Below are positions 2,156 through 17,277 of a stretch of 64,000 nt of DNA, piece after piece. The notes below the pieces were generated by a model. The model saw only the letters and a program-made list of their open reading frames with translations, did no database searches and was not told the origin of the DNA. The position numbers and the translations under genes are program-made. Position 1 is the stretch's first letter. Each line of letters begins with the position of its first letter. The stretch is from Escherichia phage vB_EcoM_G2285, in sequence record MK327933.1; one strand, written 5' to 3'.

Positions 2156-2719
2156 TTACCATTCCAATGCTAATTTTTTAAATTGTTTTTGTTCTTTCAC
2201 ATTTTTTGTAACTTCTTTGAGAAACTCATCAGTGACCATGGCCTTCAGTTCTTTAAGGACTATTGGCAACTTGTTATTTTTTTCAAGGAGCCGCTTATAC
2301 TCGGTAGCATCATTCATGTTGATTGTGTAATGTTTCATCAACAGTTTGATAACTAGTAACTCTGAAGTGTCTTCGACTAGTTTAGCCCATTTAGAGAATC
2401 GACGACCACGCGGAATTGCTGCCATCATATAGTTGAAGTGCGCTTCATCACTTAATTCAGAACCGACTAAGTTCATCATGTAAACAGCTGGCATACATTC
2501 TGGGAACTGGGATAATGAGTTCTCAACCATAAATTTTGAGTAGTCGACCTGAGCAATTGACATAGATTTCTTTTCATTAATAGCATTAATGATTTTAAAG
2601 AATTCATTCTCAGGTTTTTCTTTAAACATATCAGCACATTTTTGAATCGCATCAGCATCATTAGACTTCCATGCAATTTGGTGCTCGTTAAGTTGGACGT
2701 CATCATCAAATAAGTTCAT
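2156..2719 (-). CDS. 62: Clamp loader small subunit gp62
   Basis: 187 aa ORF immediately downstream of gene 44, abutting stop/start; size and synteny match gp62. Confidence 0.8.
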
Positions 2720-2720
2720 A

Positions 2721-3683
2721 TTATTTCCAAGTCAGTTCGCAGGTCAGTTGAAGAAGCATATACATAACATGTAATTCAATATTACTTGCTAATCCATGAA
2801 ACTTATTATTTTCGCCTGCAATTTCATAAAGCGAAATAATACTTTTACCTGGTGCAACTTTGTCATAACACTCAGAAACTAATTTATCGATGAACCATGA
2901 ATAATCAGCGGCATATTTTGGAGCTAACGCACGAAGCTGTTTGATATCTTTATTTTTCATTGCTTCTATGACATCATCTACCGTGCCACGATCATTGGTT
3001 ACAATCGACAAAATACCTGCATCAAGAACACCTTTAGACGAGTACTGGTCTAATTGACCAATTGTACGTCGAAAGTCCGGGAAGTTCTTTTTAACCAGAG
3101 CTGCAACAACTTTCATATCAGCGATTTCGATATTTTCGTTCTTACAGATTTCAACCATGCGATGAATCATTTTCTTCATCATTGAGATTTTATCTTCTTC
3201 GGTTGGACGTCCGAATTCGATAACTCGACAACGACTACGTAACGGTTCGATAATTCCATCGATGTTGTTGGCAGTAATAATAATAGAACAGTTACTAGAG
3301 AATTCTTCCATGAATGTACGAAGGTGACGTTGTGATTCAGCGAGGCCACTACGGTCAAATTCATCAATAACAATAACTTTAGGCTTGCCTTCCATTGAGA
3401 CTGAACGAGCGAATGCAGTTAATGGGCCACGCACAAAATCAATCTTACAATCAGAACCGTTGACGAACATCATTTCGGCATTGATATCATTACATAATGC
3501 TTTTGCTACGGTTGTTTTACCTGTACCAGGAGAAGGAGAGTGTAAAATAATATGAGGAAGTTTTCCTTTAGATACTAAAGACTTGAATGTTTCATGGTCA
3601 TACGCAGGCAGAATACATTCGTCAATGGAAGAAGGACGATATTTCTGTTCTAGAATGTGTTCTTTGGAATTGATAGTAATCAT
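2721..3683 (-). CDS. 44: Clamp loader ATPase gp44
   Basis: 320 aa; Walker [11 protein letters not shown], Walker [12 protein letters not shown] motif (LRSRC) typical of RFC-like clamp loaders. Confidence 0.9.
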
Positions 3684-3758: not shown

Positions 3759-4445
3759 TTAGAAGTCGTGAGTAGAATCGGCTTCCATCGCAATAACATA
3801 ACTTACTTGAGAGCTTTCAAACTTAGCTGCAACTTTATCACCAGCTCCCCACAACATTACTTTATAGTTACCTGGCTGGATTTTCATATTAGCCATATTG
3901 ATTACGAAGTTAAAGTTGTTAGAACCATCATAATCGGTAAGAGTCAAAGAATACTTAGGACGAGTTAGTCCGGAATCTTCAACTTTATTATAGCCATTGA
4001 TAACAATTTTACCATCTTTATTTGTAATAGCAATTGTATCAATCTGAAGACCACGTGAAACTCGAAGCAATTGTTGAAGGTCTTCGGCTTTAATTTCAGT
4101 AATCACAGAAGCCACTGGGAATTGAATTGGCTTATTAGGAAAAACAATGGTGCTCTTGTCAGCGGCAGGCCAATAAACTGTGGAACGTGTATCTGCAATT
4201 TTAATATTACCATCAGTGTGCATTGAAATTTCAGCATCGTCAGACACTAGACTCAAAATGCTTAAGAAGCTATTCAAATCATAAAGTGCTACGTCAAAAT
4301 CAATTTCATCAGAGATATTTGCTTCCGCATAAGTGGTGCCATTAACTGCACGAGTCATAATAAATTTACCTTGACTCAGCAGAATGCCAGAGTTAATAGA
4401 AGCGAAGTTTTTCAGAATATTTACGGTTTCACGGCTAAGTTTCAT
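3759..4445 (-). CDS. 45: Sliding clamp gp45
   Basis: 228 aa, begins MKLSRETVNILKNFASINSGILL; length and position between 44 and rpbA match gp45. Confidence 0.85.
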   Translation of the reverse strand: MKLSRETVNILKNFASINSGILLSQGKFIMTRAVNGTTYAEANISDEIDFDVALYDLNSFLSILSLVSDDAEISMHTDGNIKIADTRSTVYWPAADKSTIVFPNKPIQFPVASVITEIKAEDLQQLLRVSRGLQIDTIAITNKDGKIVINGYNKVEDSGLTRPKYSLTLTDYDGSNNFNFVINMANMKIQPGNYKVMLWGAGDKVAAKFESSQVSYVIAMEADSTHDF

Positions 4446-4804
4446 TTAGGTTTCCTATTAGCATAATAATTTGTCCAAGACCGGATAGCACCTTGGTATG
4501 ATTCATCATTAAAACCATGCTGAATTGCATGTTTTCTAAATGTAATATAACTTGGTTTTCCTAAAGCAATCCACAATTCCTTTAATTTTTGTTCATGAAA
4601 TATCCATGTACCTCTAGCTTTAGATTTTCTGAATTTATCCTTAAATTCTTTGGTTGCATTTCTTTTCGAAGCTGCGATAGAGGCCTTTGCTCTATTTTCA
4701 GGTTTAGACCAATACAATGTTTTAGATATTTTTATTTTATCTTTAACATTAGGAGAATTCATTATATCTTTAAATTTTAAAGCAAAATCTCTATCGCTAA
4801 ACAT
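4442..4804 (-). CDS. Basic 120 aa protein overlapping the 3' end of the upstream GIY-YIG-like ORF; possible DNA-binding module or separate small gene
   Basis: ATG at 4802-4804 lies inside the last 28 nt of ORF 4777-5340 in another frame; lysine/arginine rich; ATGA overlap with gene 45 start. Confidence 0.4.
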   Translation of the reverse strand: MFSDRDFALKFKDIMNSPNVKDKIKISKTLYWSKPENRAKASIAASKRNATKEFKDKFRKSKARGTWIFHEQKLKELWIALGKPSYITFRKHAIQHGFNDESYQGAIRSWTNYYANRKPK

Positions 4805-5340
4805 TTTTTAGAACGAATAGAAACTTTCTCTCTTCGTTCTTTGGTCCAATATGTTTTTTGAAATTCTCTAATTGCGTTTAAATGATTCTCCGACAATTTG
4901 CAATTTTTTCTAACACCGACGTAATCTTCATTTATTTCGTTTTTAGAAAGTTTTACTATTTTGCCTGTTTTTAAATTTTTATACGGTGCGTATCCTTTAG
5001 CTGATATTCTAGACTTCTCGTTAGCATAAGCCTTATTAAAATATTTTTCATTTGAAACGGCTTTAACATTGAGTTGGAATAGTCTTTCTATTCTTCTAGG
5101 GTCTAATGTGGTTTCGCCTAAAATTTTTACAGAATATTCGCCTTGGTCTATTAATCTGTTATATAAAGGAGAATACGAGGAATTAACACTACCGGTATAT
5201 ATTTTACCGGTAGAATCTTCAATAATATCCTTTCCATTAAAATGACACGAAACTTTAGAACCTATATAATAACACGGGTATTCATTTTTAATCTCACGAT
5301 TATAAAAGGTTATAAGATATATTAAATTCATAATTATCAA
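4777..5340 (-). CDS. Seg-like GIY-YIG endonuclease (catalytic domain), inserted between rpbA and 45
   Basis: 187 aa; N-terminus NLIYLITFYNREIKNEYPCYYIGSKVSCHF resembles the GIY...YIG motif; ATGA overlap with the rpbA stop. Confidence 0.5.
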   Translation of the reverse strand: MIIMNLIYLITFYNREIKNEYPCYYIGSKVSCHFNGKDIIEDSTGKIYTGSVNSSYSPLYNRLIDQGEYSVKILGETTLDPRRIERLFQLNVKAVSNEKYFNKAYANEKSRISAKGYAPYKNLKTGKIVKLSKNEINEDYVGVRKNCKLSENHLNAIREFQKTYWTKERREKVSIRSKKCLAIEILL

Positions 5341-5753
5341 GCAGCAACCATTTGCTTTTTAATAGCTTCAGGCAGTGATTCAATATATTCTGGAATTTTA
5401 GAAGCAACAATTTCGCCAGCTGCAATTAGTTGTTCGTCGGCATCAACACAGTAAAAATCTTCAAGGCGTTCAGAACCGTCTTTATCAAGAACGATTTTAG
5501 CACCTGCTTCGATAGAATCTTTATAGTGCTTACGCATCAAATGAATCCACATATCAGACACATCGTTATCAATAAAACCATAAATCATGAAACGAGTTTC
5601 TTGTGGAAGAGATTGAAGCTTTTTAGCACTTGCGTCATCACAATGCAGGACCCATGCTTTACGAACACGATTATGGTTATGTGGGTTAGCGTCAGTACGG
5701 ATAGAAGTAACTTTCAGATCAGCAGCAGTGAAACCTTTAGCAGTAGTAAACAT
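5337..5753 (-). CDS. rpbA: Putative RNA polymerase-binding protein RpbA
   Basis: 138 aa ORF in the position of rpbA in the T4-type 46-45.2-rpbA-45 block; assigned by synteny only. Confidence 0.45.
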   Translation of the reverse strand: MFTTAKGFTAADLKVTSIRTDANPHNHNRVRKAWVLHCDDASAKKLQSLPQETRFMIYGFIDNDVSDMWIHLMRKHYKDSIEAGAKIVLDKDGSERLEDFYCVDADEQLIAAGEIVASKIPEYIESLPEAIKKQMVAA

Positions 5754-5765
5754 ATTATTTCTCTC

Positions 5766-5957
5766 TTATTCGTAGAAGTCGGTAACTGTCCATGCGGAAT
5801 TGCGATTAGACATTATTTTATTATACTCATCTTTAAAAGCAGATTCGAGCATTTGTTCAGTAACAATATGTTCTTCACCTGAAAACGTATTGGTCAAAAC
5901 ATATTTTTTAATTTCAGGGACAACAAGAAGATGTTGACCAGTTGAATACTCCGCCAT
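5766..5957 (-). CDS. Small conserved early protein (45.2-like)
   Basis: 63 aa ORF MAEYSTGQHLLV... preceded by TATAAT; position matches T4 45.2. Confidence 0.5.
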   Translation of the reverse strand: MAEYSTGQHLLVVPEIKKYVLTNTFSGEEHIVTEQMLESAFKDEYNKIMSNRNSAWTVTDFYE

Positions 5958-5981: not shown

Positions 5982-5989
5982 TATAAATA
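5982..5989 (+). promoter_or_regulatory. Late promoter TATAAATA upstream of the HNH endonuclease gene
   Basis: Exact TATAAATA on plus strand 46 nt upstream of the ATG at 6035. Confidence 0.5.
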
Positions 5990-6034: not shown

Positions 6035-6751
6035 ATGAATTATAACTCAATATACGAAAAGCTTATCACCAATGCTAAATCAAGAAGTTTAGATGGTTAT
6101 ACAGAACGTCATCACATTATACCACAATGTTTAGGTGGAAGTGATGATGCTTTAAACTTAGTAGACTTAACACCGGAAGAACATTATTTGGCACATCAAC
6201 TGTTGGTAAAAATCCATCCAGATAATGCCTCTTTAATATATGCTGCTCGTATGATGACTATCTCATCTCCTAAAGCAGATAGAAGCAAAAACAAATTATT
6301 TGGATGGCTTCGACGTAAGAATCAAGAAGTTCAAAAGAACAAAGAATTCACTGCTGAAACTCGTAAGAAAATGTCCGAGTCGGCAAAAAATAAACCAAAG
6401 ATTACATGTCCACACTGCGGTTTAACCGGCACTGAAGGAAACATGAGACGTTGGCATTTTGATAACTGTAAACAAGGCCCTACGCCTAAAATAGTAAAAC
6501 TTGATCAAGAAACAAAGGATAAAATAATTAAAACCATGGCCACGAAAATTTGGAAAGAAGATTCTTGCCCGTTTTGTGGCTTAACTACTAAGTTATCGGC
6601 GTTAAAGCCGCATATAAAATTCTGTAAATCAAATCCTAACAGAAAGAAAAAAGAGGACAAGAAAATTAAATGTCCTCATTGCGATAAAATAGGGATCCCT
6701 GCTAATATGCGTCGTTGGCATTTTGATAACTGTAAACATAAGCCTCATTAA
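6035..6751 (+). CDS. HNH homing endonuclease with three C-terminal zinc-ribbon-like repeats
   Basis: 238 aa; HNH core TERHHIIPQCLGGSDDALNLVDLTPEEHYLAHQ; three CPxCG...NMRRWHFDNCK-like units; only plus-strand gene in the early region, between 45.2 and 46. Confidence 0.8.
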   Translation: MNYNSIYEKLITNAKSRSLDGYTERHHIIPQCLGGSDDALNLVDLTPEEHYLAHQLLVKIHPDNASLIYAARMMTISSPKADRSKNKLFGWLRRKNQEVQKNKEFTAETRKKMSESAKNKPKITCPHCGLTGTEGNMRRWHFDNCKQGPTPKIVKLDQETKDKIIKTMATKIWKEDSCPFCGLTTKLSALKPHIKFCKSNPNRKKKEDKKIKCPHCDKIGIPANMRRWHFDNCKHKPH

Positions 6752-8436
6752 GAGGCTTTCATTACAGTAAATCGTCCAACTTTGCTCATTTGCAAATGCT
6801 GTCCATAAGCTTGTGGGTCATGGTCTCTGTGACTAATTATAAACACGTTTGCATCGGTTAGAGAGTTAAGAATTGTTGAAATAGCTTTAATACCTTCAGA
6901 ATCAGTCGCGGAATCCATGACTTCGTCCATAATTAATGTATTGATTCTAACACCAGAGACCTTTTCAGCAATATCTCGCCATGTAAACAACAACGCGATA
7001 TCAATACGTGCTTTTTCACCTTGACTAAATGAAGCATAACTGAACTCTTCACGGCCACGTGATTTTATAGATTCGTTGAATTCTTCGTCAATAGAAAACA
7101 CGTAATCAGCTTCCATGATTTTAAGATAATGGTTAATCTGCTTGTTGAACAGAGGCACATATTTTTTAATGATAGCACCTTTAATACCAGAATCTTTTAA
7201 CATATCTGTAATAATACCACGATGGTATTTTTCAAGAACGATATCTGATTTTGTTTTAATGATTTTATCAAGTTCTTTTTGAAGCAAAGCTATCTCATCG
7301 GCATGGTCGATAAATTCTGCTGAGGCTTGCTCTATTGCAGCTTTAACTTTCTTAGCTTTATCAATAGTGGCAATCATTGCTTGTTTCTTGGTACGAATAT
7401 CAGATGCAAGGTCCTGTTTAGTCTTAACATTAGCTCTATATTCGTCCACTAGGACACTCAGATTATCTCTGTGACATGTAAGTTGCTCGAATGAGTGATT
7501 ACATTCATGAAGCTTATCGGTAATCTTAGAGACAATAGGATCACCCTGGTGCAACTGTGATGCACAAGTAGGACATGTGCCACCGTCATGATACATCTTA
7601 ATAACTTTGTTATATGAGTCGATTTTAGATTTAATCAAGAATGCTTCTTGTCCTATCTTGTTGAATGCCTCAGTAGGGTCTTCGTCAAGAACGATATTAA
7701 GTAGACGCTCGTTAGCTTCTTCAATTTCTGCTTTTAATGAACGAGCTTCTTTGGCTAGGTCGTCATACATATTCTGTAGACGCGCTACATTATCACCAGA
7801 TAATTTCTTTTGACGTTCGATATTCTCGTTATAAATCTTAATTTGTTGGATAACACCATCTTTCTTGGCATCGAGAACTTGTCCCTGGGAATTAAGTTCT
7901 CGAACTTGAGACTTATTGATTTTATCCATTTCAGCGAGTGTGCCGACTTCTAAAAGGTCTTCGACAAGTTTTCTACGAGCAGGGGTGCTAAGAGCCATGA
8001 AAGGGGTATACCCTGCCGTCCCAAGCACAACGATCTGTTTAAAAGACGCGTATGACATTCCGATGCTACGTTCAAATTCTTCTTGGAAGTCACGACTGCT
8101 GGCAGATTCATCAAGACGAACACCGTCAACGGAGATTTCGAAAATATTGGGCTTTTGGCCACGTCTAATGAAGTATTTTTTATCATCGAATTCCATCCAA
8201 AGCTCAACTAAGAGCTCTTTCTTGTTCGTGCTATTAATGATTTGTCCTTTCTTAACATCACGAAATGGTTTACCGAAAAGTCCGAAAGTAATGGCTTCTA
8301 ACATCGTAGATTTACCACCGCCATTTTTACCTGTGATTAAGGTCTTTTGGACTTTATCTAATTGGATATCGATAAAATTTTGCCCAACAGACATTATATT
8401 TTTATAACGAACACGATTTAATTTAAATGTTTTCAT
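6748..8436 (-). CDS. 46: Recombination/repair ATPase gp46 (SbcC/Rad50-like)
   Basis: 562 aa; Walker A GKNGGGKST near N-terminus, long coiled coil, CPTC zinc hook, C-terminal ABC signature and Walker B (LIMDEV). Confidence 0.9.
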   Translation of the reverse strand: MKTFKLNRVRYKNIMSVGQNFIDIQLDKVQKTLITGKNGGGKSTMLEAITFGLFGKPFRDVKKGQIINSTNKKELLVELWMEFDDKKYFIRRGQKPNIFEISVDGVRLDESASSRDFQEEFERSIGMSYASFKQIVVLGTAGYTPFMALSTPARRKLVEDLLEVGTLAEMDKINKSQVRELNSQGQVLDAKKDGVIQQIKIYNENIERQKKLSGDNVARLQNMYDDLAKEARSLKAEIEEANERLLNIVLDEDPTEAFNKIGQEAFLIKSKIDSYNKVIKMYHDGGTCPTCASQLHQGDPIVSKITDKLHECNHSFEQLTCHRDNLSVLVDEYRANVKTKQDLASDIRTKKQAMIATIDKAKKVKAAIEQASAEFIDHADEIALLQKELDKIIKTKSDIVLEKYHRGIITDMLKDSGIKGAIIKKYVPLFNKQINHYLKIMEADYVFSIDEEFNESIKSRGREEFSYASFSQGEKARIDIALLFTWRDIAEKVSGVRINTLIMDEVMDSATDSEGIKAISTILNSLTDANVFIISHRDHDPQAYGQHLQMSKVGRFTVMKAS

Positions 8437-13947: not shown

Positions 13948-14418
13948 TTAATCATGTTTCCACACCCCATTGGTATTTAACCAAAGTCGCTGATTATCTG
14001 ATCCTCGCCACAGCTTTTTAGTCGGAAGATTTTTCTCATACTTCCCATCAATAATAACATCAACATATTTAAGCATTTCTAGCTGTTTAATATCTTCAAA
14101 CTTATATCCTGTCCACAACCAAATGCTTTTATTGGGATAAAGATTTTTTACTGTTTGAACAATGCAATGAATAACATCTCGGTTATCAGGATAGAGAGGG
14201 TCACCTCCGGTTATAGTCAATCCTTCTATATAATCATTATTCAAACATTCAATTAATTGTTCTAGTGTTTCACCAGTGAATGGAATACCATTTCTAGCAT
14301 TCCATGTTGATTTATTATAACACCCTTCACATTTATGCAAACAACCTGTAACGAAAAGAACGACCCTGCAACCAGGGCCATTCACAAAATCGCAAGGATA
14401 AAATCTATCATAATTCAT
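13948..14418 (-). CDS. nrdG: Anaerobic ribonucleotide reductase activating protein NrdG (radical SAM)
   Basis: 156 aa; cysteine cluster CDFVNGPGCRVVLFVTGCLHKCEGCYN; ATGA overlap with nrdD. Confidence 0.85.
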   Translation of the reverse strand: MNYDRFYPCDFVNGPGCRVVLFVTGCLHKCEGCYNKSTWNARNGIPFTGETLEQLIECLNNDYIEGLTITGGDPLYPDNRDVIHCIVQTVKNLYPNKSIWLWTGYKFEDIKQLEMLKYVDVIIDGKYEKNLPTKKLWRGSDNQRLWLNTNGVWKHD

Positions 14419-15746
14419 TGGTGTTTAACCCTATGCATTATTTCTTTATTTTTACCGAGATTAAATCCGCGTTCGTTCGGATTTCCCAAATAACCGCATG
14501 TTCTTCTTATGGTGTTCATCTTTTTAGGATCAGTTTCTCCGCAAACTGAACAAACAAATCCGTTTTCAGTAGGAGTCATTTCATGGGTACTTCCGCATGT
14601 AAAACATTTATCTACTGGCATATTAACACCAAAATAATCTAAATGTTGTGCAGCATAATCCCATACGGCCTCAAGACCTTTTAAGTTATTTTTCATATCA
14701 GGAAGTTCAACATAAGAAATGTGGCCACCTGTCGCAATGAAATGATATGGTGCTTCACGAGAAATCTTTTCAAACGGAGTAATATTTTCTTCTACTGAAA
14801 CATGGAAACTATTAGTGTACCAGCCTTTATCAGTGACATCCTTTACACTTCCATATTTTTCTGTATCAAGTTTACAGAAGCGATAACAAAGGTTTTCAGC
14901 AGGAGTCGAATATAAACTAAAAGCAAACCCAGTTCTTTCAGTCCACTGTTTAAGATGAGCATTCATTTTAGTTAAAATTTCCTGTCCAATATCACGACCG
15001 ACAAGAATATTCAATTCATGAATACCAATGTATCCTAGGGACACTGAACTTCTACCGTTTTTAAATAACTCAATTATGTCGTCATCAGGTTTAAGACGAA
15101 CCCCGAATGCACCTTCTTGGTAAAGAATAGGAGCAACAGTCGCTTTAACTCCTTTTAAGGAACTAATTCTACACATCAAAGCTTCAAAACACAAATCCAT
15201 TCGTTCATTGAATAATTCAACAAATTTCTGTTCATTGAACTGTGTTCCAATATAAGAATCTAACGCGATGCGAGGAAGATTCAATGTTACAACACCAAGA
15301 TTATTACGTCCATCAAGAATTTCATTACCAGTCGAATCTTTCCATACGCTCAAGAAACTACGGCAGCCCATTGGAGAAACTGGAACTGAAGAACCGGTAA
15401 TAGCTTTATTATTCTTAACCGAAATAATGTCAGGATACATTCTTTTGCTTGCACATTCTAACGCAAGTTGTTTAATATCATAGTTCGGATCATCTTTATA
15501 AAGATTAACACCTTCTTCAACAAACATAACAAGCTTAGGGAAAATAGGAGTTATCCCATCACGACCAAGACCTTTAATCCGATTTTTCAGAATTGCTTTC
15601 TGAATCATTCGTTCAGTCCAGTCAGTTCCAGTACCAAATGTAATTGTTACAAAAGGCGTTTGTCCATTTGAACTGAAAAGTGTATTTACTTCATCATTAT
15701 ATTCAGCATGAGTCGCAAATTCATGCTCGTTTATATGAAACAACAA
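14415..15746 (-). CDS. nrdD: Anaerobic ribonucleotide reductase NrdD, C-terminal part (exon 2; 5' boundary is ORF-based, not the true splice site)
   Basis: 443 aa ORF ending with the glycyl radical motif RRTCGYLG and a C-terminal Cys4 cluster (CFTCGS...CSVCGE). Confidence 0.8.
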   Translation of the reverse strand: MLFHINEHEFATHAEYNDEVNTLFSSNGQTPFVTITFGTGTDWTERMIQKAILKNRIKGLGRDGITPIFPKLVMFVEEGVNLYKDDPNYDIKQLALECASKRMYPDIISVKNNKAITGSSVPVSPMGCRSFLSVWKDSTGNEILDGRNNLGVVTLNLPRIALDSYIGTQFNEQKFVELFNERMDLCFEALMCRISSLKGVKATVAPILYQEGAFGVRLKPDDDIIELFKNGRSSVSLGYIGIHELNILVGRDIGQEILTKMNAHLKQWTERTGFAFSLYSTPAENLCYRFCKLDTEKYGSVKDVTDKGWYTNSFHVSVEENITPFEKISREAPYHFIATGGHISYVELPDMKNNLKGLEAVWDYAAQHLDYFGVNMPVDKCFTCGSTHEMTPTENGFVCSVCGETDPKKMNTIRRTCGYLGNPNERGFNLGKNKEIMHRVKHQ

Positions 15747-16491
15747 AATTTGGATAGTCCATAGATATGCAACGTTCTTTTATAGTGCTAGGATGAAAAT
15801 TTAGCGCTTTAGCTGCTTCTATATAAGACGTATACTTAATACCGTCAACAACCACATATTCAGGAACTTTATGAATAGTAGTCTTAATACTCAAAACAAG
15901 AGGATGAGTTTCGACTTCACTTTCAGTGCAATTTAAATATTCCGCTGCTTTTTTAAAACTTCTAAAAGTTTTATTTTTAAGCTTTATCGATACTTGTTTT
16001 TTACTTTTTCGACTATTGATATTATTTTGCACATGTTCCTTAGATCTTCCGTTTTTAGCATAATATTCAGCTACAGAAGATTTTATATTGTTTTTATGAG
16101 ATTCGGATAACACTTTACCCTTATGAGCATCTCTTAATTTTTGAATATGTTCTTCAGTATCCGGATGCTTATAAAACTTTTTACCGCCTATGGATTTATT
16201 TAAACATTTTTTGCTATAAAAATATTTACGTATGACCTCTTCTTCATGTTTTAATGCATCTTTATAACTATCAAATGTTTTTAAAATTATCCATTTAGTA
16301 GGTGTATCAGTTTTTAAGCGTTCATTTATATACTTAGATGACGTTGTGTAAGTTTTCCAGTTTGTGGGCTTGTTTTTAATTGTTCTAAATTTTTTATAAC
16401 CGATATAAATGTCGCCATTAGAAAACTTAACTAAGTATGTAAATGCGTCTTTATCTTTTATTTTAGTACAACGTCTTTTTATCCATTTCAT
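15721..16491 (-). CDS. Intron-encoded GIY-YIG homing endonuclease (I-TevII-like)
   Basis: 256 aa ORF inside the interruption of nrdD; N-terminal YLVKFSNGDIYIGYKK resembles the GIY-YIG motif; basic C-terminal region. Confidence 0.7.
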   Translation of the reverse strand: MKWIKRRCTKIKDKDAFTYLVKFSNGDIYIGYKKFRTIKNKPTNWKTYTTSSKYINERLKTDTPTKWIILKTFDSYKDALKHEEEVIRKYFYSKKCLNKSIGGKKFYKHPDTEEHIQKLRDAHKGKVLSESHKNNIKSSVAEYYAKNGRSKEHVQNNINSRKSKKQVSIKLKNKTFRSFKKAAEYLNCTESEVETHPLVLSIKTTIHKVPEYVVVDGIKYTSYIEAAKALNFHPSTIKERCISMDYPNFVVSYKRA

Positions 16492-16735
16492 TGTTTCACC
16501 TCGTATTCATAAGATAATCTTATTTATACAAGATGACTGCTGCATGTCGCCATGCAGATTAGACTATATCTTCATCTTTCGATGCCGGCCGTTTCGAATA
16601 GCATTAGCTTCTATTCTACACCGCTACATTCATCACGGTTAGTCGTTAGGCATTTAGTTCAAAAGAACATTTAGCACGGGATTGTCTACTAGAGAGGTTC
16701 CCCGTTTAGACCGGTTTTACATGAGCCTGAATTAA
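15740..16735 (-). mobile_element. Probable group I intron interrupting nrdD (boundaries approximate)
   Basis: About 1 kb separates the two nrdD reading-frame segments and contains the endonuclease ORF plus about 240 nt of structured non-coding sequence (16492-16731); arrangement as in the T4 nrdD intron. Confidence 0.55.
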
Positions 16736-17277
16736 ATTAACTCATACGCCTGGAATGCATCGTATACGTCTTTTTCTGTTTTAGATTGAGCATAATTCAA
16801 CGCATCAGCGATTTGCCATTTTTCTGCATCTTCAATATGTTTAGCATATGTGCGTTTAACATAAGGAGAAAGTACTTTATCTACATTCGCAAATGTAGTT
16901 CCGCCATACTGGTGTGAAGCAACTTGCGCGGTAATTTGTGCCATAATTGCAGTAGCAACACCGATTGATTTAGGAGTTTCAATCTGTGCATTACCTAGCT
17001 TAAATCCGTTTTCAAGCATTCCTTTTAAATCTACTAAACAACAATTAGTAAATGGAAGAGCAGGGGAATAATCAATATCGTGCACGTGAATAATTCCGCT
17101 TTCATGCGCTTTCATAATAAAAGACGGGACTATATTTTTGGCAATGTGTTTAGACACAATACCAGCCATAAGGTCCCGTTGAGTTGGAAAAACACGAGAA
17201 TCTTTATTAGCATTCTCGTTTAAAAGGTCTTTATTAGTTTTATGAATCAATCCTTCAATTTCTTTTTCAATTGTCAT
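16732..17277 (-). CDS. nrdD: Anaerobic ribonucleotide reductase NrdD, N-terminal part (exon 1; 3' boundary is ORF-based)
   Basis: 181 aa ORF MTIEKEIEGLIHKTNKDLL... running into a stop inside the putative intron. Confidence 0.7.
   Translation of the reverse strand: MTIEKEIEGLIHKTNKDLLNENANKDSRVFPTQRDLMAGIVSKHIAKNIVPSFIMKAHESGIIHVHDIDYSPALPFTNCCLVDLKGMLENGFKLGNAQIETPKSIGVATAIMAQITAQVASHQYGGTTFANVDKVLSPYVKRTYAKHIEDAEKWQIADALNYAQSKTEKDVYDAFQAYELI

Follow-up and report, generated by a model that had tools for sequence, protein, structure and literature searches.

In Escherichia phage vB_EcoM_G2285 (MK327933.1), two overlapping ORFs in different frames lie between rpbA and gene 45, raising the question of whether they encode two proteins or are the remains of one gene. 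An earlier note on the 64,000-nucleotide stretch analyzed here (the window) had read the first ORF as a GIY-YIG endonuclease and had offered three explanations for the pair: a two-piece enzyme with coupled products, a homing endonuclease decayed by frameshift, or a programmed frameshift. The ORFs belong to the replication module of a T-even Mosigvirus, which is read here on the minus strand.

A pair of overlapping ORFs at the rpbA-gene 45 junction

The ORFs and their neighbors are as follows.

2156-2719, minus strand: gene 62, from the gene order of the module
2721-3683, minus strand: gene 44, from the gene order of the module
3759-4445, minus strand: gene 45, the sliding clamp in the annotation of nine near-identical records
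4442-4804, minus strand: ORF-B, 120 aa, with its ATG at 4804-4802
4777-5340, minus strand: ORF-A, 187 aa from a TTG (ORF listing and sequence reading)
4777-5331, minus strand: ORF-A from the ATG at 5331, 184 aa, the start used by all database annotations
5337-5753, minus strand: rpbA (Pfam Phage_RpbA, 4.8e-48)
5766-5957, minus strand: 45.2 (Pfam Gp45_2)
6748-8436, minus strand: gene 46, from the gene order of the module

Both flanking genes and the arrangement of the pair agreed with the earlier description. The ORF-A TAA is at 4779-4777, the ORF-B ATG lies 25 nt upstream of that TAA, and the ORFs overlap by 28 nt with the ORF-A stop codon counted. The exact proteins, from phage vB_EcoM_G2285, are QBO62488.1 (ORF-A) and QBO62487.1 (ORF-B), and the GIY...YIG-like N terminus claimed for ORF-A was present as IYLITF...YYIGSK.

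By megablast, nine phage records, each of them a Mosigvirus, contain the full 1.6-kb region; within the phage collection, Escherichia phage FL31 is closest to the window (99.3% over 4300-5900). About 190 other records matched the flanks only, with rpbA and gene 45 parted by a 42-nt spacer; the insert occurs in nine records, and the empty junction, at an identity of at least 95%, in about 142. A segment of ∼850 bp is present or absent between otherwise 98% identical genomes, and, like the Seg genes, it is a freestanding ORF between conserved genes that is variably present in close relatives. This polymorphism and the single ORF of most carriers show that the ORF pair is not a chance arrangement. 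Intact orthologues with 49 to 63% identity occupy the same junction in Tequatrovirus and in two metagenomic T4-like lineages, and that of SHBML-50-1 (Tequatrovirus) is annotated as a "homing endonuclease." In each orthologous clade the seg stop overlaps the gene 45 ATG; all four clades use the same site.

One gene broken at an A-run

In five of the nine carriers (FL31, AV116, AV109, AV114, and AV118), the locus holds a single 891-nt CDS of 296 aa, the stop of which overlaps the gene 45 start. An alignment of the ten loci gave the following features.

4442-5331, minus strand: full extent of the seg-like homing endonuclease pseudogene; 890 nt in the window, against 891 nt (296 aa) in intact alleles
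4804-4809, minus strand: A6 tract, the frameshift site; A7 in intact alleles
4804-4809, minus strand: lesion of AV115 in the same run, A11
near 4860, minus strand: lesion of JM17 and FL18, an extra A
near 4733, minus strand: lesion of AV111, one A missing

The final A of the A6 tract doubles as the A of the ORF-B ATG, and insertion of one A gives a 296-aa protein that differs from that of FL31 by S179N alone. From its ATG, ORF-A (4777-5331) comprises native residues 1 to 175 and a 9-aa out-of-frame tail (CLAIEILL and the residue preceding it). ORF-B corresponds to about residues 176 to 296, its initiator being Met176 of the intact protein, and is continuous in frame with ORF-A in the intact alleles. 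Of the three explanations offered, frameshift decay is the one that these data support: A6 stands in place of A7, and a single A restores the 296 aa. An active Seg family member is expected to have an uninterrupted ORF with nuclease and DNA-binding regions. The window copy lacks one owing to the 1-nt deletion at 4804-4809 and is therefore filed as a pseudogene of the family, not as an active member. From these comparisons, we consider it quite probable that ORF-A and ORF-B are the halves of one freestanding T4 Seg-type homing endonuclease gene with a SegG-like GIY-YIG domain, broken by a change from A7 to A6.

The other four of the nine carriers (JM17, FL18, AV115, and AV111) are also broken, by lesions that differ but that each lie in an A-run. 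Among the ten genomes, the gene shows four independent alleles with single lesions, all in A-runs, compared with six substitution sites, and no second lesion was seen in the broken alleles in the ten-locus alignment. A-runs of five to six bases are classic T4 spontaneous frameshift hot spots; therefore, ordinary mutation suffices for these frameshifts. A frameshift of this kind is routine, the split being ordinary decay or, possibly, an error in the record. "Decay after fixation" was rejected as the sole cause because the empty site is common in the genus. One lesion per broken allele could also result from reversible switching or from breakage in the very recent past.

Phage homing endonuclease genes are described as frameshifting often between closely related isolates, to the point of a hallmark, and a split into adjacent nuclease and DNA-binding ORFs has been documented as well (PMC10448857). 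In ICP1 gp115 (HNH) and gp116 (AP2) and in the defunct T4 I-TevIII, nuclease and DNA-binding domains likewise became adjacent ORFs through frameshift. Those systems differ from the present one in nuclease class and phage lineage; here, moreover, the intact allele of sister genomes allows the lesion to be traced to one base.

That base could have been lost from the record rather than from the phage, which would then have A7 and an intact 296-aa gene. Such a homopolymer miscall fits a single-base lesion in a homopolymer, as well as the finding that the exact ORF-A and ORF-B proteins occur in one named public genome only, vB_EcoM_G2285. The genomes of the source study were sequenced by either Illumina or PacBio RSII, and PacBio RSII consensus errors are mainly homopolymer indels. 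However, this is the sole indel in the first ∼12.6 kb of a 12.9-kb block shared with FL31 (97.9% identity, up to window position ∼12850), and essential genes are intact; thus, the assembly is not generally error-prone. In addition, the same gene has three other independent poly-A frameshift alleles in four genomes, and both collections from which they come were sequenced on Illumina MiSeq 2x250, so that recurrent real frameshifts are credible. We regard a miscall as unlikely.

The poly-A tracts might act as slippery or hypermutable sites that make the broken gene leaky or switchable, with low levels of full-length enzyme made by −1 ribosomal or transcriptional slippage at TCT-AAA-AAA-TG or with on/off toggling by replication slippage. 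A −1 shift on AAA-AAA (site TCTAAAAAATG) would restore the native ...SKKMFSD... junction exactly; homing endonucleases are needed in trace amounts only; and the recurrence of single A-run lesions, never with a second one, is in keeping with this idea. On the other hand, the other three clades lack the A-run and have plain single ORFs (...VKNRY, ...MKLKY, and ...AKANM at this place), and ordinary mutation at T4 hot spots is sufficient. As a site for efficient transcriptional slippage, A6 is short; T-AAA-AAA does not match the canonical X-XXY-YYZ heptamer; and the sequence has no good upstream Shine-Dalgarno-like stimulator. The RNA fold of the downstream 70 nt (−10.2 kcal/mol, z −1.55) was not significant, with 11 of 200 shuffles equal or better. 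The proposal of a programmed frameshift gene was rejected, as neither the slip site nor the zero-frame stop is conserved, most orthologues are single ORFs, and the downstream structure is unremarkable. Leaky or toggling expression seems very improbable. We are just as skeptical of the broader idea that the A-tracts act as reversible switches or leaky −1 sites, which would make the nuclease mostly silent and quickly reactivatable; in the "off" state, ORF-B would bind DNA at the gene 45 start on its own.

The nuclease half is SegG-like

ORF-A contains a GIY-YIG catalytic domain (about aa 1 to 105), a three-stranded beta module (about aa 114 to 139), and the first two linker helices. Residues 1 to 137 matched PHROG 7504, "homing endonuclease" (2.6e-16), and residues 1 to 136 matched T4 SegG by tblastn (38% identity over 136 aa; E = 2e-8). 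A cluster of SegG-length proteins matched the family profile at 8.6e-61. The SegG-type catalytic domain family comprises 756 representatives in a 50%-identity library (E ≤ 0.001). PMC2988022 and PMC2330249 describe T4 SegG as an experimentally proven GIY-YIG homing endonuclease.

The homology to SegG (gene 32.1) covers the N-terminal ∼115 aa, with the motifs MN.VY..F, PYYYIGSK, K.Y..S, E..Q, and YFN..YA. In the alignment, Y5, F9, P19, YYIGSK (residues 21 to 26), K43, Y45, S48, E82, Q86, N94, YFN (97 to 99), and YA (102 and 103) are common to the family and SegG. Like segG, the element is a freestanding ORF that immediately precedes an essential replication gene and has the same orientation. 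The two differ in site (59|32 for SegG and rpbA|45 here), in length (210 and 296 aa), and in the C-terminal targeting region, which here is unrelated to that of SegG and resembles that of an HNH endonuclease. Unlike SegG, the window copy is frameshifted.

Y22, G24, Y45, and N99 were invariant across 34 and then 127 relatives; I23, S25, K26, and E82 were invariant in the 34 and at least 90% conserved in the 127; and the tyrosine of the GIY motif, Y5 (in LIY), was at least 90% conserved. Hhalign placed E82 and N99 opposite the catalytic Glu and Asn of I-TevI (E75 and N90). The domain has the GIY-YIG alpha/beta fold, with about 90 to 100 aa and a three-stranded sheet flanked by helices. Whereas T4 I-TevI and I-TevII are intron encoded and have the canonical 10 to 11 residues between the GIY-like and YIG motifs, this element is not intron encoded and has 16 residues there, with an inserted beta hairpin; it is also without a zinc finger. 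Among the 34 and the 127 relatives, no conserved Arg was found between the YIG motif and E82 as a counterpart of I-TevI R27. The residues conserved in this interval are K26, Y45, and S48/S51, and the same pattern occurs in T4 SegG, which is active.

Profile searches, by which the earlier note had proposed to confirm the nuclease, gave a divided result: the curated libraries were silent, while the homology to SegG and the PHROG 7504 match supported the assignment. With E values up to 10 allowed, Pfam gave no relevant match for the intact protein or for either ORF, so that neither PF01541 nor PF19835 recognized them, and NCBIfam gave none for the same three proteins. T4 SegG, run as a control, likewise had no match in Pfam or NCBIfam; because a proven enzyme fails too, the absence of a match is not a refutation. 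Among the 127 relatives scanned, PF19835 (SegE_GIY-YIG) matched nine weakly (best, 3.3e-4) and PF01541 matched none. That the Pfam GIY-YIG models miss the SegG-type family points to a gap in current profile coverage. More distant comparisons gave a weak hhalign match of the family to the single I-TevI sequence (E = 0.045), of which a deeper family profile recovered a NUMOD3-like stretch only, and a profile-profile match to the I-TevII homologue of the window at 15721-16491 (E = 3.7e-5). The Foldseek match to I-TevI was not significant, and a family-profile search of PDB sequences returned spurious matches only (a GNAT and a TonB receptor).

The C-terminal half as a putative targeting region

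Residues 146 to 296 are predicted to be helical, with helices over 148 to 291 in an AF2 model, and ORF-B consists of helical NUMOD3-like repeats and a C-terminal helical, HTH-like module. NUMOD3 motifs occur in the equivalent region of 87 of the 127 family relatives. The C-terminal 96 aa of a Dhakavirus IME540 homing endonuclease, an enzyme of the HNH type, match ORF-B with 34% identity (E = 3e-12). We take the ORF-B region to be the DNA-targeting region; the frameshift therefore cuts between the nuclease and most of the targeting region. The occurrence of an ORF-B-type module on an HNH enzyme is the familiar shuffling of targeting modules between nuclease classes. This HNH gene of IME540 adjoins regB, and in phage VR26 a different "putative DNA endonuclease" is annotated beside gene 45. 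Reuse of the module in IME540, together with the other endonuclease in VR26, suggests that endonuclease genes land recurrently in the region upstream of gene 45.

The break is located in the linker that joins predicted modules. ORF-B begins with a methionine of the intact protein and forms a self-contained helical unit, which another nuclease carries as well; the isolated DNA-binding domain of I-TevI binds its own site alone. ORF-A and ORF-B might, then, be made separately and reassemble, or ORF-B alone might bind DNA at the gene 45 start as a regulator or protector. Yet there is no Shine-Dalgarno sequence within 20 nt of the ORF-B ATG, the split is not conserved (other alleles break at about window positions 4860 and 4733, and most carriers are unsplit), and the clades with 49 to 63% identity have intact orthologues and no two-gene arrangement. 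A conserved two-piece enzyme, as the earlier note had suggested, was rejected on the varying split positions and the unsplit state of most carriers, and we give separate functions for the halves scarcely any credence. The preferred reading remains a single gene broken by frameshift.

Divergence is concentrated at the junction

Comparison with insert-free relatives, proposed in the earlier note, showed that the 42-nt spacer is replaced and that divergence is concentrated at the junction with gene 45.

5332-5366, minus strand: upstream junction, the last 30 nt of rpbA and a 5-nt spacer in place of the 42-nt rpbA-45 spacer
4416-4445, minus strand: insert-linked recoded patch of 30 nt at the 5′ end of gene 45; a candidate for the polymorphism of immunity or target

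This patch differs from its counterpart in insert-free pEB20 at 13 of 30 positions, compared with 0 to 4 per 30 nt further into the gene, and the independent Tequatrovirus pair SHBML-50-1 and T4 differ at 11 of 30 there. In the last 30 nt of rpbA, mismatches number 3 of 30 (Mosigvirus) and 7 of 30 (Tequatrovirus). The recoded patch, which includes a synonymous TCT-to-AGC serine change, was found at 100% identity in the nine insert-carrying records only, among 395 matches, and ATGAAACTGTCTAAAGATACTA is exactly common to insert-free T4 and pEB20. For SegE, SegF, and SegG, sequence differences near the site give the carrier immunity (PMC2330249). The insert-linked differences lie where a Seg element would be expected to have them, at or near its target, and their role would be protective: we infer that the enzyme recognizes or cleaves the start of gene 45 or a site near it and that carriers owe their immunity to the patch.

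The seg gene has a GC content of 29%, compared with 35 to 39% in its neighbors. No obvious Shine-Dalgarno sequence precedes its ATG, no T4 late promoter consensus was found on the minus strand in or near it, and sigma-70-like sites there were not above chance. Tblastn revealed no paralogue elsewhere in the window, a gathering-threshold Rfam scan of the whole window returned two tRNAs only, and a literature search found no endonuclease named at rpbA/45. Inside the seg ORF, a hairpin at 5189-5213 (minus strand) has a perfect 9-bp stem, CTACCGGTA-AAATATA-TACCGGTAG (−14.9 kcal/mol). It spans the conserved TGKIYTGS codons and occurs in the Mosigvirus clade only, being absent from the three other clades.

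Coupling to gene 45 and a proposed mechanism

The 3′ end of the seg gene is interlocked with the start of gene 45.

4451-4456, minus strand: gene 45 Shine-Dalgarno sequence AGGAAA, within the last seg codons (N-R-K), from sequence reading
4442-4445, minus strand: ATGA, the overlap of the seg stop and the gene 45 start

The TAATAGGAAA...ATGA arrangement is found in all four seg clades. Because the gene 45 Shine-Dalgarno sequence lies inside the last seg codons, clean loss of the element would damage the expression of an essential gene. An embedded-promoter argument made in PMC2988022 is a parallel to such Shine-Dalgarno-based retention.

The insert replaces the entire translation initiation region of gene 45 (window 4446-4470), changing GAAAGGAAATAAAATG to TAATAGGAAACCTAAATG. 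It also replaces the spacer, which in T4 contains a MotA-box-like middle promoter (TTGCTTTA...TATAAA). Both RegA repression and middle transcription of gene 45 may therefore differ in the insert-carrying phages.

What the comparisons show is the origin from one gene, its frameshift, SegG homology with a GIY-YIG fold, presence/absence polymorphism, and junction-centered divergence; cleavage, its position, the loss of activity, and the reason for retention are parts of a proposal. We propose that the intact 296-aa element most likely behaves like SegE, SegF, and SegG. In a mixed infection, the intact enzyme would cleave the rpbA-gene 45 junction of a related phage without the insert, the cut probably falling at the start of gene 45 or close to it. 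Recombination-dependent phage repair would then use the seg+ genome as template, so that the seg gene is copied together with its flanking markers. The replaced spacer and the recoded first ten codons of gene 45 would shield the seg+ genome itself. In the window, the frameshift parts the nuclease domain (ORF-A) from most of the targeting region (ORF-B, which is without its own ribosome-binding site), and owing to this separation the window copy is most likely inactive for homing. The broken copy may persist as a passenger, its 3′ end still supplying the gene 45 ribosome-binding site. Defunct homing endonuclease copies can persist and be mobilized in trans, according to PMC2790892.

For annotation, a single entry, a disrupted SegG-like GIY-YIG homing endonuclease, should replace the two "hypothetical proteins" here and in JM17, FL18, AV115, and AV111. 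At least four T4-like lineages carry the rpbA|45 element, an uncharacterized Seg-type endonuclease with a candidate target in the first ten codons of the sliding-clamp gene. If this is true, the replication module would gain a marker-exclusion locus, and the GIY-YIG enzymes a new specificity.

Other homing endonuclease genes in the window

Two further genes of this kind were observed.

6035-6751, plus strand: HNH homing endonuclease, 238 aa (phrog_655, 1.2e-66), with zinc-ribbon repeats
15721-16491, minus strand: I-TevII homologue, 256 aa, interrupting nrdD (about 14415-17277)

Flanked by 45.2 and gene 46, the HNH gene runs against all of its neighbors, with a T4 late-promoter consensus, TATAAATA, at 5982-5989 (plus strand), 46 nt upstream. 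FL31 has this gene, but neither pEB20 nor any of the other eight Mosigviruses with the insert does. The I-TevII homologue presumably sits inside a group I intron; the gathering-threshold Rfam scan reported no intron model match. FL31 is without the ∼1 kb that holds this gene. The homologue is 56% identical to T4 I-TevII, passes the Pfam SegE_GIY-YIG cutoff, and carries a NUMOD1 motif.
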